Assembly: GCF_013248865.1 (NCBI RefSeq) | Contig: NZ_JABNNF010000018.1 | DNA: 64,000 nt | Strand: one strand, 5' to 3' | DNA from: Corallococcus exiguus | Lineage (GTDB): Bacteria; Myxococcota; Myxococcia; Myxococcales; Myxococcaceae | Part shown: positions 17,894-23,131 of the stretch, piece by piece | Layout: each line of letters opens with the position of its first letter | How positions within the stretch are numbered: position 1 is the stretch's first letter | Position numbers and translations under genes: made by a program | Notes under the pieces: generated by a model | Database searches by the model: none | The model's input: the letters and a program-made list of their open reading frames with translations, nothing else | Told to the model about the DNA's origin: nothing

Positions 17894-18781
17894 CTATGCG
17901 AGCAGCGTGGCGTCCATCACGGTGAGGGCCACTCCACCGACGCGGGCGCGCTCGATGTGGCCTGGTCGGCCGGTGACCTGGATGTCGATGCGGCCCGGCT
18001 TGCCGAGCGTGTCGCCCTGTTCGATGCGACTCGACACCGTGCCGCCGTGCTCCGGCAGGCGAAGGCTCCCGTGCTCGGCGAGCCAGGCCGCGAGCGGTCC
18101 CGCGGCGGAGCCCGTCACGGGGTCCTCCAGGATGCCGAAGCCCGGGACGAAGTAGCGCGCCTGGGCCACGCTCCCTTCCTCCTTCGCTTCGCGGGTGAAG
18201 AGGTAGACGCCGCGCAAGCCGTGCGGCATCAGCAGCGCGTTCATCGCCGCGCCTCGCGGCGTCAGGGCCTCCAGGTCCGCGAGCCGCCGGAGGGGTACCA
18301 CCAGCCGGTGGCCCTGGCGGATGACCGGCAGTGACGCGTCCACCTGCGACGCGGTCCCGCCCATCGTGGCCATCAGCGCGTCCAGGGCCACGGGGTTGGG
18401 CTGCGCGGGCGGCGGGGGCGTGGCGATCCACACCCGAGTCCCACGCGTGCCCTGGGGCTCCAGCTCGATGCCGAACGTGCCGCCGGGGCACTCCAGCGTG
18501 TACGTCCCCGGGCTTCGCAGGAGCCCCTTCTCCGCGAGCAGGTGGAAGGTGGCCACCGTGGCATGGCCGCAGAAGGGAATCTCGTCCACGGGCGTGAAGT
18601 AGCGCAGGCGCACGGTGGCGTCACCGGGCCGGGACAGCAGGAACGCGGTCTCCGACGCGCTGACGGCCGCGGCGGTCCGCTGCATCGTGGGGACATCCAG
18701 CGCCGAGGCGTCGAGCACCACGCCCGCGCGATTTCCCGCACCGGCGGTGCGGGTGAAGGCATCGATGATGTGAACCTGCAT
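17894..18781 (-). CDS. PhzF-family (phenazine biosynthesis-like) isomerase
   Basis: 'MQVHIIDAFTRTAGAGNRAGVV...VDEIPFCGHATVATFHLL'. Only the C-terminal 296 aa of the 825-aa ORF are credible. Confidence 0.8.
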   Translation of the reverse strand: MQVHIIDAFTRTAGAGNRAGVVLDASALDVPTMQRTAAAVSASETAFLLSRPGDATVRLRYFTPVDEIPFCGHATVATFHLLAEKGLLRSPGTYTLECPGGTFGIELEPQGTRGTRVWIATPPPPAQPNPVALDALMATMGGTASQVDASLPVIRQGHRLVVPLRRLADLEALTPRGAAMNALLMPHGLRGVYLFTREAKEEGSVAQARYFVPGFGILEDPVTGSAAGPLAAWLAEHGSLRLPEHGGTVSSRIEQGDTLGKPGRIDIQVTGRPGHIERARVGGVALTVMDATLLA

Positions 18782-18925
18782 GGGCGGACTCCGGACAGGG
18801 GAAGGGCCTGGGAAACAGCGCAGGCATGCTCCGCCTGGACCGTTGGCGTCAAGCGCGGGACCGACGCACCGGAGCCCCCACAACAGGGTTGAACGAGAGC
18901 GCCGGAGCAGGCACAGCAAGGATGC

Positions 18926-19702
18926 ATGAATCTCCTGAAGTCGGGTGGGTGGGTGGTGCTGGTGGTGTTGCTCCACGCGAGCGGCGCGGCGGCACAGATC
19001 GTCAACGTGCAGGCGCTCTTCGACGAGAAGGCGGAGCCGGGGCCGGCCGCGGCCATCGAGTTGGGCGGCGACTGGCGCACGGGCAGCACGGAGCTGTTCT
19101 CCATTCGGGGCTCCCTGGTGGGCCAGCTGAGATCCGAGCGCGACGTCTGGCTGGGCGTCATCCGGGGTGAGTATTCGTTCGCCAGCGGCGAGCGCATCGT
19201 CAGCCAGGTGCTGGAGCACGTGCGCTACCGGCGCAAGCTCACGGACACGGTGTCGGGCGAGATCTTCGCGCAGCACGAATACAACGAGTTCCGCCGGCTC
19301 CAGCTCCGGATCCTGCTGGGCGCGGGACCGCGCTTCATCCTGCTCAACGAGGACCGCCTGGGGCTCACCTTCGGGGTGGCGCTGATGATGGAGCACGAGC
19401 GGCTGCGTAAGGACGGCGAGCCGGACGCGGGAGACCGCTACACGGATCCGCGAGTCTCCAGCTACCTGCTGGGACGGATAAAGCTGATGGAGAACATCAA
19501 CCTCGTGGAGACGGTCTACATCCAGCCGCGAGTCACCCGCCCCTCCGACCTGCGCGTGCTCAACGAGACGATCTTCGCGGTGACACCCAATCCCCGCGTC
19601 ACGGTGGGCATCGGCTTCAACCTCACCTACGACAGCGCGCCGCCCGCGACAGTGCCTGCCCTGGACACGCAGCTGCGCACCACGGTGGGTGTGAAGCTTT
19701 GA
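18926..19702 (+). CDS. Putative outer-membrane beta-barrel protein (DUF481-like)
   Basis: Signal peptide 'VVLVVLLHASGAAAQ'. Alternating-hydrophobic beta-strand pattern. About 250 aa. Confidence 0.4.
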   Translation: MNLLKSGGWVVLVVLLHASGAAAQIVNVQALFDEKAEPGPAAAIELGGDWRTGSTELFSIRGSLVGQLRSERDVWLGVIRGEYSFASGERIVSQVLEHVRYRRKLTDTVSGEIFAQHEYNEFRRLQLRILLGAGPRFILLNEDRLGLTFGVALMMEHERLRKDGEPDAGDRYTDPRVSSYLLGRIKLMENINLVETVYIQPRVTRPSDLRVLNETIFAVTPNPRVTVGIGFNLTYDSAPPATVPALDTQLRTTVGVKL

Positions 19703-20080
19703 GTGGATGGCAACGACCGCGTTGAGGAACCGGGCGCGGAAGCCAGGCTCGGGAGGACGCACCTTCTCCAGCGTCAACGACGCATCCACGGCCCCCGTGC
19801 GCGGCGTGCGCCTGGGGCGCTGCACCGCGAGCCACCGAAGCGCGTCGCGCGCTGTGTCCCGGAATACGCCATGGAGACGCGCCAGCTTCGATTCCGAGCC
19901 CAACCGCGCAGGGGTCGGTAGTCCCCCCAGCGAAAGACCGCGCTCAAACTGCGCCCCCACATCCGCCACGCGCCCCACTCGCACCATCCCCATCCCCTCT
20001 TCGTCCCAGCATCGCCATCCAACCACAGGGGTCTGACATGGGCGCGACGTCACCCGTCGGGCCAGCACGGCCCCAGGTCG

Positions 20081-20283
20081 CATGCATCGAAAACCTGTCC
20101 GACTGTCGGACAAGTTTTGAGGCAACCGGCCCCGGTCGGGCGCCGCTGTCCGTGTCATCACCTTGGCGTTGACACGCCCGACGTCGCTCAATGGTGGGGC
20201 TGGCGCGGCCCCGGGCCTCATGCAGTGGAAACCTGTCCGACTGTCGGACAAGTTTGGAGACAACCGGCCCCGGGCGGGCGCCT
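20081..20283. repeat. Two direct copies of a roughly 65-bp element (20081-20145 and 20219-20283), each with a perfect 17-bp palindrome TGTCCGAC-T-GTCGGACA flanked by an A-run and a T-run
   Basis: Read directly: 'gaaaacctgtccgactgtcggacaagttt(t/g)gag(g/a)caaccggccccgg' occurs twice, 138 bp apart, in the 730-bp region upstream of proC. Confidence 0.5.
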
Positions 20284-20429
20284 CTCTTCGTGGGCTCACC
20301 CCGCCGTCCGCTCCTGCATCCCGTCGGTCCCCATTGCCGCACCCCGCCAAGGCGCGCGCCGCCGCGAACACCGGATCACGGACTCTGTTGGCGAGTTCCT
20401 GGCGGCCGACCTGAGGTTAGGCTTCCGTC

Positions 20430-21281
20430 ATGGCGTCCCACTCCATTCCCGCCCCTGTCGTCCTATTGGGAGGCGGCAAGATCGCCGAAGCCCTCATCCT
20501 GGGACTGTTGCGGTCCGGCCATGTGCGTCCGTCGGACCTTCGCGTCACAGTGCGCCGGCCCGAGCGCGGAGAGGAATTGCGCTCCCGGCACGGTGTGCAC
20601 GTCCTCATGGACAACGCGCAGGCAGTGCGGGGCGCGGCCGTAGTCGTGCTGTCGGTGCGACAGGCGCAGCTGCGGGACCTGATGGCGGTCATCTCGCCGG
20701 CCTTGGAACCTGGGCAGACCGTGGTGTCGCTCTCCGCGGACGTGCGACTCGCGCAGTTGGAAGCGGCGTTGCCCTCCAGCGTCTCTGTCATCCGCGCCCT
20801 GCCCCATACGCCCGTGCGAGTGGGGGCGGGCGTAACACCCCTGTCGGCCGGGACTCGGGCGACGGAAGCCGCGAGGCAGTCCACCGAGTCCGTCTTCGCG
20901 GCGACGGGCCGGCCCATGTGGATGACCGAGGAAGCGCTCACGGTCTGCACGGGCGTGTGCGGCACGGGCCCCGCGTACGTCTTCCGCTTCGTGGAGACCC
21001 TGGCCCAGGCCGCGATGGCGCACGGAATGGACGCGGCGGAGGCGGCGGCACTCGCGAAGGAAACGCTCATTGGCGCGGCGAAGCTGTTGGCCGAACCCGG
21101 CGCCACCACCCCTCGCCTCATCACGGAGATAGCGACCCCGGGAGGCATCACCGAGGCGGGCCTGATGGCGATGGACTCCCACGGCCTCCCTCGCGTCGTG
21201 GGCGAAGCAGTCTCCGTCGCCATCCAGCGCACTCGGGAGCGCGCGGACGCGAACGCCGCGGCCTACAGCACGCCGAAGTGA
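20430..21281 (+). CDS. proC: Pyrroline-5-carboxylate reductase
   Basis: 'VVLLGGGKIAEALILGL', 'TPGGITEAGL'. Length about 283 aa. Confidence 0.85.
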   Translation: MASHSIPAPVVLLGGGKIAEALILGLLRSGHVRPSDLRVTVRRPERGEELRSRHGVHVLMDNAQAVRGAAVVVLSVRQAQLRDLMAVISPALEPGQTVVSLSADVRLAQLEAALPSSVSVIRALPHTPVRVGAGVTPLSAGTRATEAARQSTESVFAATGRPMWMTEEALTVCTGVCGTGPAYVFRFVETLAQAAMAHGMDAAEAAALAKETLIGAAKLLAEPGATTPRLITEIATPGGITEAGLMAMDSHGLPRVVGEAVSVAIQRTRERADANAAAYSTPK

Positions 21282-21946
21282 CGCTTGATCCCCCGCTGGC
21301 CTCCAGGCGTGACGATGAGGCCGCGAGAGTCGGGCTGACGCTCCACCCATCCCAATGAGAACACCCGGGCAGCGAGCGCCGCGCCCAGCGCACCCGCGAG
21401 GTGATCGCGCCGCTCACTCCAGTCCAGGCAGCGGTGGGCGAAGTGGCGCCGCTGCTCGCGCACGGGCGACAGGTCAATGCCGAAGTCCTGGAACCACGCC
21501 TCGCCGCTCGGGGTGAGCGCGAATGCGCGTTTACGAAGGGCGAGATGTCCGGCCCGCAGGAGCGCGTCGGTGATACCCATGCCCAATCTGCCCGCCAGAT
21601 GGTCGTAGCAATAGCGCGCGGCACGCAGAGGCTCCGGAGTCGCTGACACACGGGGTCCTCGGACCGCCACGGTCATCAGCGCTTCCACCATCCGCGCCAC
21701 GGTGGGCGTGGCGATCCGGAACACCTTGTTGCGCCCCTGCCGGGTGACGCGGACCAGCCGGGCCTGCTCCAGCCGCTGAAGGTGCGCGGTCGCCGTCGCG
21801 GGGCTGACGCCCGTACCGAACGCGAGCTCCTTCGCGACGAGCGCCCGTCCCTCCATGAGCAGCTCCAGCATCCGGATCCGCGTGGCGTCCCCCACGGCCG
21901 TGGCCAGCGTCGTGAGGTCCGGCCCTGCATTCATCGTTCGGTCCAT
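21263..21946 (-). CDS. ArsR-family transcriptional regulator with C-terminal extension
   Basis: Helix-turn-helix 'DATRIRMLELLMEGRALVAKELAFGTGVSPATATAHLQRLEQARLV'. Divergent from the P450 gene across a 63-bp gap. Confidence 0.7.
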   Translation of the reverse strand: MDRTMNAGPDLTTLATAVGDATRIRMLELLMEGRALVAKELAFGTGVSPATATAHLQRLEQARLVRVTRQGRNKVFRIATPTVARMVEALMTVAVRGPRVSATPEPLRAARYCYDHLAGRLGMGITDALLRAGHLALRKRAFALTPSGEAWFQDFGIDLSPVREQRRHFAHRCLDWSERRDHLAGALGAALAARVFSLGWVERQPDSRGLIVTPGGQRGIKRHFGVL

Positions 21947-22009: not shown

Positions 22010-23131
22010 ATGACACCGCCCACCGACCCGTATCAGGCCGTCACCCACCCCGACCCGTACCCCTACTACGCGGAGCTTCGAGCCCGGGGCGGACTGCACC
22101 GCGTCCCCGGCTTCGGACCATGGATCGCGGCGGATGCGGTCACCGTCCGCGCGGTGCTCACGAGCGAGCACTGCCGGGTCCGGCCACTGTCGGAGCCGGT
22201 GCCTCCGCATCTGGTGGGCACCTCCGCCGGGGCCCTCTTTGGCCGGCTGGTGCGGATGAACGACGGAGGCCCCTACCCCGCCGTGAAGCAGACGCTTTCA
22301 CGTGCGCTTCCGGAGGCCCTGCGAGAGGTCGAAGCGGAGAGCCGCCGCTGGGCGGCACGGCTGTTCGCGACGCCCTCACTGTCTCGACTGACGGACGCCG
22401 CACTCCAGCTTCCCGTGTTCGTGCTGGGGTCGCTGCTGGGCTTCCCGGAGGACACGCTCGCGGCGAGCGTGCAGGACGTGGATGCCTATGTCCGCTCGGT
22501 CGCCGGTCCTCCTGCGGGCAATGAAGGTGCGGCGAGGCTGAACGAACTCATGGCGGCCTGCTTCCAGTCCACTACGAGGACCGCGTTCACGACTCGACTT
22601 CAGGAAGGCCATGGCTCGGAGGACCTGCGCGTCCCGAACGCCGTGGGCCTGCTCACCCAGGCATATGAAGCGACGGCCGGGCTCCTGGGAGCGACGCTGC
22701 GGGCCTTCGCTCGTGTGCCCGGGCTGCGCGAACAGCTCTCACATGGTGCGTGCACGATGGACGACGTGGTCCAGGAAGCGGCTCGATACGATTCGCCGGT
22801 CCAGAACACGCGACGCTTCATCCATGCCGCAGCGACCGTCGCGGGTCAGGCGCTGGAGGCCGGTGAGACCGTGGTCGTCGTGCTCGCCGCCGCGAATCGC
22901 GATCCGCTGGAGAATCCCCAACCCGACGCCTTCCTGCCAAGGCGCGCACGGCGCCAGACCTTCACCTTCGGCCTGGGCTCGCATGCCTGCCCTGGGCCCC
23001 TGCTCGCAACGACGATGGCCACGGCAGCGGCGGAGAGTGTGCTCGCGAGCGGCCTGGACCTGTCACCGTTGTCGGGCCCCGTCACCTGGCGTGCTTCCAC
23101 CAATGCTCGCGTACTGGGAGGACTGGAATGA
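22010..23131 (+). CDS. Cytochrome P450
   Basis: Heme-binding loop 'FGLGSHACPG'. 'ARYDSPVQNTRR' (ExxR-region). Confidence 0.85.
   Translation: MTPPTDPYQAVTHPDPYPYYAELRARGGLHRVPGFGPWIAADAVTVRAVLTSEHCRVRPLSEPVPPHLVGTSAGALFGRLVRMNDGGPYPAVKQTLSRALPEALREVEAESRRWAARLFATPSLSRLTDAALQLPVFVLGSLLGFPEDTLAASVQDVDAYVRSVAGPPAGNEGAARLNELMAACFQSTTRTAFTTRLQEGHGSEDLRVPNAVGLLTQAYEATAGLLGATLRAFARVPGLREQLSHGACTMDDVVQEAARYDSPVQNTRRFIHAAATVAGQALEAGETVVVVLAAANRDPLENPQPDAFLPRRARRQTFTFGLGSHACPGPLLATTMATAAAESVLASGLDLSPLSGPVTWRASTNARVLGGLE

Follow-up and report, generated by a model that had tools for sequence, protein, structure and literature searches.

The two palindromes upstream of proC in the window (the 64,000-nucleotide stretch of Corallococcus exiguus DNA analysed here) almost certainly belong to a repeat family that is dispersed through Corallococcus and mark a dead FadR/GntR cassette. 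Our best explanation of the region as a whole combines three elements, namely the dispersed repeat, the dead cassette and a palindromic apex bound by FadR/GntR paralogs; we hold it to be probable, with considerable room for doubt. The Corallococcus element forms part of a cassette, itself multi-copy, that consists of one or more palindromes, a variable stretch, a leader, a FadR/GntR-type gene and often a further palindrome at the 3′ side.

The proC spacer and its regulator relic

An earlier note on this DNA had described the region as 730 bp long and gene-free. The spacer between the DUF481 and proC genes in fact measures 727 bp (19703-20429) and holds a minus-strand GntR relic together with its leader (Table 1). 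The window contains the 27-mer AAACCTGTCCGACTGTCGGACAAGTTT at 20091-20117 and again at 20229-20255; the centre-to-centre distance is 138 bp, as the note had reported, and the surrounding 65-bp contexts, 20081-20145 and 20219-20283, are identical at 58 of 65 positions. The flank given for both copies, GAAAACC, is correct for copy A, whereas copy B reads GGAAACC. The similarity extends to a direct repeat of 114 nt with 81% identity (20056-20169 versus 20194-20307), and the two copies thus represent a 138-bp unit duplicated in tandem. With only two units, and these 81% identical, the region gave no match with Tandem Repeats Finder.

Table 1 Features in and around the spacer between the DUF481 and proC genes, in window coordinates
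Feature	Position	Strand	Remarks
DUF481 outer-membrane protein gene	18926..19702	+	left spacer boundary
Lineage-specific segment	19703..20414	.	~712 bp; in window, L121, L125, L126; absent in C. sicarius
Truncated FadR/GntR-family pseudogene	19760..19993	-	tblastn E=2e-16, ~52% identity
Cassette leader	19994..20046	-	CGCGCCCATGTCAGACCCCTGTGGTTGGATGG...GGGGATGG; box GTCTGAC on + strand at 20031-20037
Full repeat element A	20053..20155	-	apex palindrome and G+C-rich arms; nhmmer E=3e-17; ~100 nt
Tandem duplication, 138-bp unit	20056..20307	.	114 nt aligned, 81%
Palindrome copy A, 25 bp	20092..20116	.	AACCTGTCCGAC-T-GTCGGACAAGTT; one G-to-A departure from family ACAGG
Full repeat element B	20198..20292	-	nhmmer E=1e-17
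Palindrome copy B	20230..20254	.	core same as copy A; centre 188 nt upstream of proC ATG
proC (pyrroline-5-carboxylate reductase)	20430..21281	+	right spacer boundary

Within the 64 kb, the 17-mer occurs at these two sites only when up to three mismatches are allowed (0.33 expected; 0 of 100 shuffles reached the observed count), and a profile of the whole element family (nhmmer) likewise finds two copies of ~100 nt each in the window and no others. Both copies carry ACAAG instead of the consensus ACAGG. Scans of the region for sigma-70 promoters and for terminators gave no match to either, and an Rfam search at E<=10 gave none on the element and two chance-level matches elsewhere in 19000-21500.

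Read on the minus strand, elements B and A are followed by the leader (20046-19994) and then by the GntR fragment. The leader includes GGTCTGACATGG at 20030-20041 (+ strand), and its sequence is as in intact cassettes. The GntR fragment is a pseudogene. It reads ATGGGGATGGTGCGAGTGGGG..., aligns to the first 83-88 of ~400 residues, lacks 5 aa in the wing and breaks off near residue 92, where it abuts the DUF481 stop codon; the codon model calls no gene there. The long antisense open reading frame across the spacer (17894-20371, 825 aa) had been taken merely to translate the repeat. Instead, the frame stays open by chance across the GntR relic, the antisense of the DUF481 gene and a real PhzF gene.

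Orthologous loci were fetched via the DUF481 protein, so that this set is not biased by the palindrome; exact look-up matched the DUF481 product and gave no match for the proC product. The truncated relic and the two palindromes are also present in three further genomes (L121, L125 and L126). In C. sicarius, proC starts 15 bp past the DUF481 stop codon and there is no cassette, and two more Corallococcus genomes lack both proC and a cassette at this place. The ~712-bp segment is therefore lineage-specific, and the palindromes came with the cassette, not with proC.

This history bears directly on the idea that the pair forms a local operator controlling proC, bound in trans by a FadR/GntR paralog, which we consider improbable. 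Its appeal lies in the position of the sites, between the divergently oriented GntR relic and proC with copy B centred 188 nt upstream of the proC ATG, and in the conservation of the cores in four genomes despite the dead neighbouring regulator gene. However, proC of C. sicarius follows DUF481 directly and without sites, the two Corallococcus genomes mentioned above lack proC here, and the same tandem palindrome unit stands upstream of intact paralogs in unrelated contexts. The upstream neighbours of the cassettes are mixed as well (10 divergent, 7 co-directional), with no consistent partner gene. As it was the cassette that brought the sites, they are unlikely to be an operator private to proC, though they may incidentally affect this gene, 188 nt downstream.

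The conservation of the segment is uneven. Across three distinct lineages, the two 27-bp cores vary in 2 of 54 columns, whereas 154 of 673 columns vary in the remaining spacer (Fisher p=2e-4). The leader, with 6 variable columns of 67, is likewise less variable than this remainder (p=0.004). Between the window and L125, the GntR fragment has diverged at ~17.5% of positions, like neutral sequence. The ACAAG variant is found in both copies in the window, in copy B only in L121, and in neither copy in L125 and L126, where both are consensus. The low variation in core and leader columns indicates that something preserves them after the death of the gene. Candidates for this upkeep are selection for a trans-acting function and gene conversion from other copies, which could mimic purifying selection.

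A palindrome dispersed through Corallococcus

A genome-wide search for the core had been proposed in the earlier note, according to which a high-copy interspersed repeat would speak against its interpretation. The core is a repeat of this kind. Scanning reference genomes, one genome per species, with the pattern CYTGTCCGACNGTCGGACARG (one variable core position, transitions only) yielded at least 174 exact 17-bp cores in at least 120 loci. The consensus of these cores (at least 174) is a perfect 25-bp palindrome, AACCTGTCCGAC-W-GTCGGACAGGTT. Among the matches listed, the hosts are nearly all Corallococcus, including C. exercitus, C. coralloides, C. interemptor, C. carmarthensis, C. terminator, C. 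praedator, C. llansteffanensis, C. sicarius and others; a few loci come from Archangium, Vitiosangium and Hyalangium, and at least 14 from one Archangiaceae-like MAG. The complete chromosome of C. exercitus SDU142 has at least 54 cores in 35 fetched loci, with copies ranging from 0.9 to 8.9 Mb, and C. coralloides KYC2213 has at least 31 cores. The spread on the SDU142 chromosome and the odd-centred site rule out parS or another chromosome-organising site, parS being a 16-bp even palindrome that clusters near the origin. A phage origin is unsupported, as a search of viral contigs found no match to the repeat.

The palindrome has sharp boundaries. Bases at +/-11 and +/-12, which lie outside the search pattern, are complementary in 95% and 93% of the copies among the matches listed, whereas at +/-13 and +/-14 the figures are 48% and 33%. 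Partial complementarity returns from +/-23 to +/-36, where the G+C-rich arms pair. The whole element spans ~77-100 bp, with an invariant 25-bp apex and weakly conserved G+C-rich arms; solo copies mostly align by BLAST over -13 to +13 only, that is, over the 25-27-bp apex, and their arms have diverged. As the scan was for exact matches, the perfection of the cores in the fetched loci is due in part to ascertainment; only the DUF481-fetched orthologous loci and the protein-chosen paralogs escape this bias.

Neighbouring genes were predicted with a codon log-odds model, which reproduced the genes of the window; GC3-based callers were too noisy. Among the matches listed, 122 of 131 arrays lie outside predicted genes. 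The 101 classifiable intergenic arrays among these matches have co-directional neighbours in 53 cases, convergent neighbours in 28 and divergent neighbours in 20, which is close to random, and 107 of the 131 arrays listed have no GntR gene nearby. Arrays of 2-5 copies number 29 among the matches listed, with spacings that cluster at 69-73 bp and 125-144 bp. The 69-73-bp periods raised the possibility of CRISPR arrays. The intervening spacers are themselves copies of each other, which identifies the arrays as tandem duplications and not as CRISPRs; the 138-bp units of the window, too, are 81% alike.

The same gene arrangements argue against a bidirectional intrinsic terminator, suggested in the earlier note, or an mRNA-stabilising RNA hairpin, each with a succession of A-run, stem and T-run. 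Although 28 arrays among the matches listed lie between convergent genes and many copies are found 14-100 nt past a stop codon, 20 of the arrays listed lie between divergent genes, and one array precedes every paralog of the regulator described below. The apex can form a 12-13-bp hairpin, and the region of copy A folds at z=-3.8 on the minus strand, but that of copy B folds no better than shuffled sequence, and it is the sequence that is invariant, not just the pairing. T-runs after the stem are 2-3 nt long in 71% of arms and reach at least 5 nt in ~9%, they are not biased to the direction of transcription (2.74 versus 3.0, p=0.16), and the terminator scan of the region is without a match. We therefore regard a terminator or mRNA-stabilising hairpin as very improbable.

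The chance that the unit is a small repeated structured RNA gene, which its hairpin-rich, duplicated nature could suggest, is slighter still and close to nil. The covariance-model search proposed in the earlier note gave no Rfam match on the element at E<=10, there is no sigma-70-like promoter, the perfect two-fold symmetry carries no strand information, and the copies (at least 174 exact cores) occur in all orientations. Here again the sequence is invariant, and what is conserved is not a pairing kept by compensatory changes.

In the Archangiaceae MAG, with at least 14 copies, the element is a well-formed 77-bp hairpin, CCTCCCGGGCGCG..TTTCAG-core-CTGAAA..CGCGCCCGGGAGG. These copies alternate with a second palindrome type and have no adjacent GntR gene in the fetched loci.

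Cassettes and regulators of the FadR/GntR type

Clustering of 837 predicted proteins from the matches listed yields a single family that recurrently adjoins the repeat. It is a GntR family whose 19 members, of ~400 aa, lie at a median of 128 bp from the repeat. The picture is the same when 131 flanking genes, drawn from sampled loci and not from whole genomes, are scanned against Pfam: GntR is the sole enriched family (15 matches), and neither a transposase family nor a RAYT-like gene is among them.

We aligned 19 cassettes, using the N-terminal protein motif LVAYVE as anchor. The centre of the palindrome lies 145-148 nt upstream of LVAYVE in 14 of the 19 and 118-121 nt upstream in four; in the cassette L038, the unit at ~148 nt has one mismatch and a further exact copy is found at 197 nt. 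Some cassettes have extra palindrome copies farther upstream. Between palindrome and gene, all 19 share a leader block conserved at the nucleotide level, CGTCCATGTCAGACCCCTCTGGTTGGATGG..., which is separated from the palindrome by ~60-88 nt of variable sequence. The leader contains a single GTC-N-GAC box, TGTCAGAC, which all 19 cassettes have ~60 nt ahead of the start codon and which a 47%-identical relative has as well. This box corresponds to one unit of the two inverted boxes of the palindrome, GTCCGAC and GTCGGAC. Most annotated proteins start with MVRVG, downstream of the leader, and subfamilies differ within the leader by compensating 1-nt indels. The leader is therefore non-coding, and an N-terminal coding extension is ruled out. 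Inspection of the leader by eye for a sigma-70 or sigma-54 promoter revealed nothing convincing.

Paralogous cassettes are homologous from roughly 300 nt before the start codon to 800-1360 nt past it. A second palindrome, with 0-5 mismatches, follows ~945-1360 nt downstream of the leader in 12/19 cassettes with enough downstream DNA, and is positioned in or just past the region coding for the protein tail. Paralogs picked by protein similarity alone, from C. coralloides DSM 2259, C. exiguus and C. caeni, have the leader and one or more palindromes in three out of three cases. The DSM 2259 paralog (L122) is intact and has four palindromes, a 134-138-bp tandem unit and the ACAAG variant, as in the window.

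The regulator paralogs match PF00392 (wHTH) and show a sequence match to E. coli FadR over residues 7-207. An AlphaFold model computed from 43 paralogs has its best fold matches in FadR, McbR, NanR and similar proteins, and displays a wHTH and an all-helical domain that extends to approximately residue 235; the tail that follows is disordered and poorly conserved. Residues 42-90, which comprise the recognition helix and the wing, are nearly invariant across 117 paralogs. A protein database search returned more than 120 clusters at 90% identity, all from Corallococcus, and C. exercitus SDU142 alone has at least 14 paralogs. An exact look-up of protein P0046 gave no record.

A distinct similarity gap sets this clade apart from ordinary FadR-like proteins. 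Distant members occur in Hyalangium and in many soil metagenomes, and Hyalangium versicolor also carries the palindrome. When metagenomes were scanned with the paralog alignment, the matches were almost all generic GntR wHTH proteins, as one peptide pattern was too general; a single match, L132, truly belongs to the clade, and the other 79 loci serve as generic GntR controls. Two distant clade members (47% and 51% identity) have no 25-bp palindrome upstream; 3′ of the gene they have a palindrome-like copy, which is present in 0 of the 79 generic GntR controls.

A candidate protein recognition site and its relatives

A 25-bp sequence that is invariant, sharply bounded and two-fold symmetric between diverged arms has the hallmarks of a site recognised by protein in double-stranded or hairpin DNA. 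An RNA stem would preserve pairing rather than sequence, and a recently transposed 77-100-bp element would be alike over its whole length. We propose that the apex acts as DNA and is recognised by protein in a sequence-specific manner, and that its likeliest binders are the FadR/GntR paralogs with their almost invariant wHTH and wing. Judged from sequence, this assignment of the apex to the paralogs has somewhat better than even support. At an intact paralog, a strong double site upstream and a single box near the promoter would provide for autoregulation. Additional sites at which these proteins act in trans would be provided by the solo copies and by the two relics in the window.

Several features make the paralogs the best candidate readers. 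They are the only genes consistently linked to the palindrome, on both flanks and down to 47-51% identity; the near-invariance of residues 42-90 matches that of the site; and every cassette has a single like box ahead of its start codon. The halves of the palindrome, moreover, each have the form GT-N3-AC, which is reportedly typical of operators of this family, and contain the GTCCGAC core of the fadL site. The E. coli fadL FadR site with this core is AGCTGGTCCGACCTATA (PMC4259882). We infer the pairing of paralogs and palindrome from genomic association and motif resemblance.

The earlier proposal of operators for a dimeric regulator thus survives in altered form. The private pair at proC fails because the repeat is high-copy, but a dimeric-regulator site gains support from its fixed place upstream of FadR/GntR genes, from its pair of inverted GTC-N-GAC boxes, which resemble the FadR site of E. 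coli, and from the dead regulator copy in the window. With 107 of 131 arrays lacking a GntR gene and 28 lying between convergent genes (both among the matches listed), the family as a whole is not a classical promoter regulon. A promoter operator makes no sense between convergent genes, the position of 28 of the 101 classifiable arrays listed. The two boxes of the palindrome are only 8 bp apart and, judging by this geometry, two FadR-like dimers might clash.

Much of the dispersal could also be produced by a selfish REP/MITE-like hairpin repeat that has no regulatory partner, a possibility that we consider doubtful but take seriously. Such a repeat would spread and persist by transposition in trans, by template switching at hairpins or by gene conversion. 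One copy would have landed beside an ancestral GntR gene and been amplified along with it, and the copies in the window would be junk of the dead cassette. The high copy number, the extragenic positions, the occurrence in all gene orientations, the tandem arrays (69-73 bp and 125-144 bp) with repeated spacers and the predominance of solo arrays are all consistent with this, and the paralog cassettes have ~300 bp of upstream sequence in common, so that a hitch-hiking copy would co-amplify. The complete 77-bp hairpins of Archangiaceae form a mosaic with the second palindrome type, as in BIMEs, and, as they have no adjacent GntR gene, keep the selfish repeat in contention. It is at odds, however, with the lack of any transposase family or RAYT-like gene among the 131 flanking genes, and with the link to the GntR clade, which is found on both sides of the gene and holds at ~50% protein divergence. 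Diverged arms around a preserved 25-27-bp apex fit selection on a short site and not recent bursts, the cores are far more conserved than neutral surroundings in the unbiased orthologous set, and the GTC-N-GAC box recurs singly in the leader.

Interspersed palindromes are known mainly as the REP-RAYT systems of gamma-proteobacteria. Like the REP and BIME elements of enterobacteria and pseudomonads, with their RAYT and REPINs, the Corallococcus repeat is a short, conserved, high-copy and extragenic palindrome that occurs as singletons or regularly spaced clusters, has an associated gene flanked by repeat copies and persists vertically across species. Its partner, however, is a multi-copy FadR/GntR paralog, whereas that of REPs is a single-copy Y1 transposase. 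REPs require a GTAG-type tetranucleotide at their 5′ end, and the Corallococcus consensus lacks a GTAG motif. REPs consist of two arms around a variable loop, while here the apex of the hairpin is conserved, and the Corallococcus palindrome is perfect over 25 bp. Clustering takes the form of tandem arrays at 69-73 and 125-144 bp and, in Archangiaceae, of alternation with the second palindrome; the orientation of a perfect palindrome is undefinable.

The resemblance to operators of the FadR subfamily of GntR proteins (E. coli FadR, PdhR) lies in an odd-centred palindrome built on GT-N3-AC, with GTCCGAC as in the fadL site, in the fixed distance upstream of the regulator's own gene and in the FadR fold of the protein. 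In contrast to these operators, the 25-bp Corallococcus site fuses two inverted boxes. Genomes contain dozens of copies at the least, and probably far larger numbers; the copies are not confined to promoters and in some cases lie between convergent genes. The regulators also differ, with at least 14 paralogs per genome of one apparent, predicted specificity.

MITEs and other hairpin repeats (Correia/NEMIS, ERIC, RUP) are likewise small, non-coding, palindromic and dispersed between genes, in promoters or after genes. Unlike them, the Corallococcus element has no recognised parent insertion sequence, no demonstrated target-site duplication, its ends being too diverged to define one, and no transposase gene beside its copies in the sampled loci. 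Its poor arms and invariant apex are the opposite of conservation centred on terminal inverted repeats. REP-like behaviour without a GTAG motif and, among the 131 flanking genes, without a Y1 transposase, combined with a FadR-like form that extends beyond promoters, leads us to class the repeat as an extragenic palindrome of the interspersed kind that is partnered by a multi-copy family of transcription-factor genes.

More tentatively, the palindrome and the FadR/GntR paralogs may be a co-amplified pair, comparable to a REP-like repeat that has ligand-type transcription factors in place of a transposase as its partner. If so, the genus as a whole would have a network of identical sites, numbering probably hundreds in each genome. 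At least a dozen paralogs with one DNA specificity and differing effector domains and tails would read these sites, and dead cassettes would leave behind working sites that rewire neighbours such as proC. In the full-text literature, which was incompletely covered, we found no description of this myxobacterial repeat or of the Corallococcus FadR/GntR expansion. Should the paralogs bind the palindrome, this would be a rare case of a transcription-factor family and its site multiplying together across a genome, and a system in which to study the growth of regulatory networks by duplication, the sharing of one DNA specificity by many paralogs and the functional sites that remain after gene death. 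For annotation, the long C-terminal tails of these FadR/GntR regulators, which read through a repeat element, call for caution; in the window, a 727-bp spacer that had appeared empty is explained and a pseudogene is flagged.

Forms and arrays of the palindromic repeat

The dispersed palindrome also occurs in some Archangiaceae genomes, within a 77-bp hairpin that is well conserved and has the same 27-bp core at its apex. The same genomes carry a second palindrome type, ACTTGT[A/C]CAC-TWA-GTG[T/G]ACAAGT, in adjacent units approximately 70 nt away. The resulting Archangiaceae arrays are mosaics of two palindrome types, and in this respect they resemble BIMEs. Both palindromes of the window carry a G-to-A variant of the core, GGACAAG, which is shared by one copy in the sister strain and by two distal copies upstream of an intact paralog in C. 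coralloides DSM 2259. The recurrence of this variant could be due to parallel mutation, gene conversion or the existence of a sub-family.

An array in C. coralloides KYC2213 (L011) contains at least seven palindrome units with a period of mostly 72 bp, several of which show the 1-nt deletion variant AACCTGTCGGACAGTCGGACAGG. Its likeness to a CRISPR is superficial, and this assignment was ruled out because the spacers are themselves repeated.

Coordinates of repeat-associated features and of genes at the DUF481-proC locus
Feature	Location	Strand	Genome or remark
77-bp hairpin, Archangiaceae	L007, L009, L015, L020, L028, L030, L112, L117 and others		MAG MFD05674.bin.2.184
77-bp hairpin, Archangiaceae	L062, L074, L116		Archangium MAG
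GGACAAG variant	window 20113, 20251		both palindromes
GGACAAG variant	L121:4332		sister strain
GGACAAG variant	L122:3556, 3690		C. coralloides DSM 2259
Palindrome array	L011:5160-5860		C. coralloides KYC2213
Palindromes and leader before non-GntR ORF	L078:7595-7860		C. coralloides KYC2213
Tandem 79-bp unit	L131:2820-3000		metagenome assembly GCA_034691105.1
Tails reading through palindrome	P0002; L016:6662-7867 (tail); cassettes L071, L094, L105		
825-aa ORF (rejected)	window 17894-20371	minus	
PhzF-like gene	window 17894-18781		in frame with the 825-aa ORF
DUF481-proC locus	window 18926-21281		compared with L127, L128, L129
ArsR/MarR-type wHTH gene	window 21263-21946	minus	19-nt overlap with proC 3' end
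Cytochrome P450 gene	window 22010-23131	plus	divergent to wHTH gene

The repeat beside coding sequences

In the C-terminal tails annotated for several paralogs, the reading frame continues across the downstream palindrome, which encodes the peptide ...SDCRTD.... The tails show little conservation, and disorder is predicted for them (pLDDT below 50). Some of the annotated sequence may not be a functional domain but the product of reading through a repeat element.

At another site in C. coralloides KYC2213 (L078), two palindromes and the conserved leader (CCATGTCAGACC...) precede an ORF other than GntR, which starts MEWVRAIAKKVAG...; it appears that palindrome and leader can be combined, as a module, with a different gene. 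In a metagenome assembly, a member of the FadR/GntR clade (47% identity) has upstream of it two tandem copies of a 79-bp unit that encloses the single box (CATGTCGGAC / CATGTCAGAC), a parallel to the duplicated operator-like unit of the window.

The long antisense ORF of the window was rejected as a gene and attributed to high G+C content. In a single frame it runs through a real PhzF-like gene, the complementary strand of the DUF481 gene and the GntR relic, a truncated pseudogene.

Polymorphism of the DUF481-proC locus

Comparison with three other versions shows that the locus is polymorphic within Corallococcus. Only 15 bp separate the DUF481 gene from proC in C. sicarius, and in two further genomes proC is absent from the locus, with an ArsR-family gene directly next. 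These differences suggest that the proC of the window may be a relocated or accessory copy. Every Corallococcus version of the locus, whether or not it includes proC, retains the pair of ArsR/MarR-type wHTH and cytochrome P450 genes.
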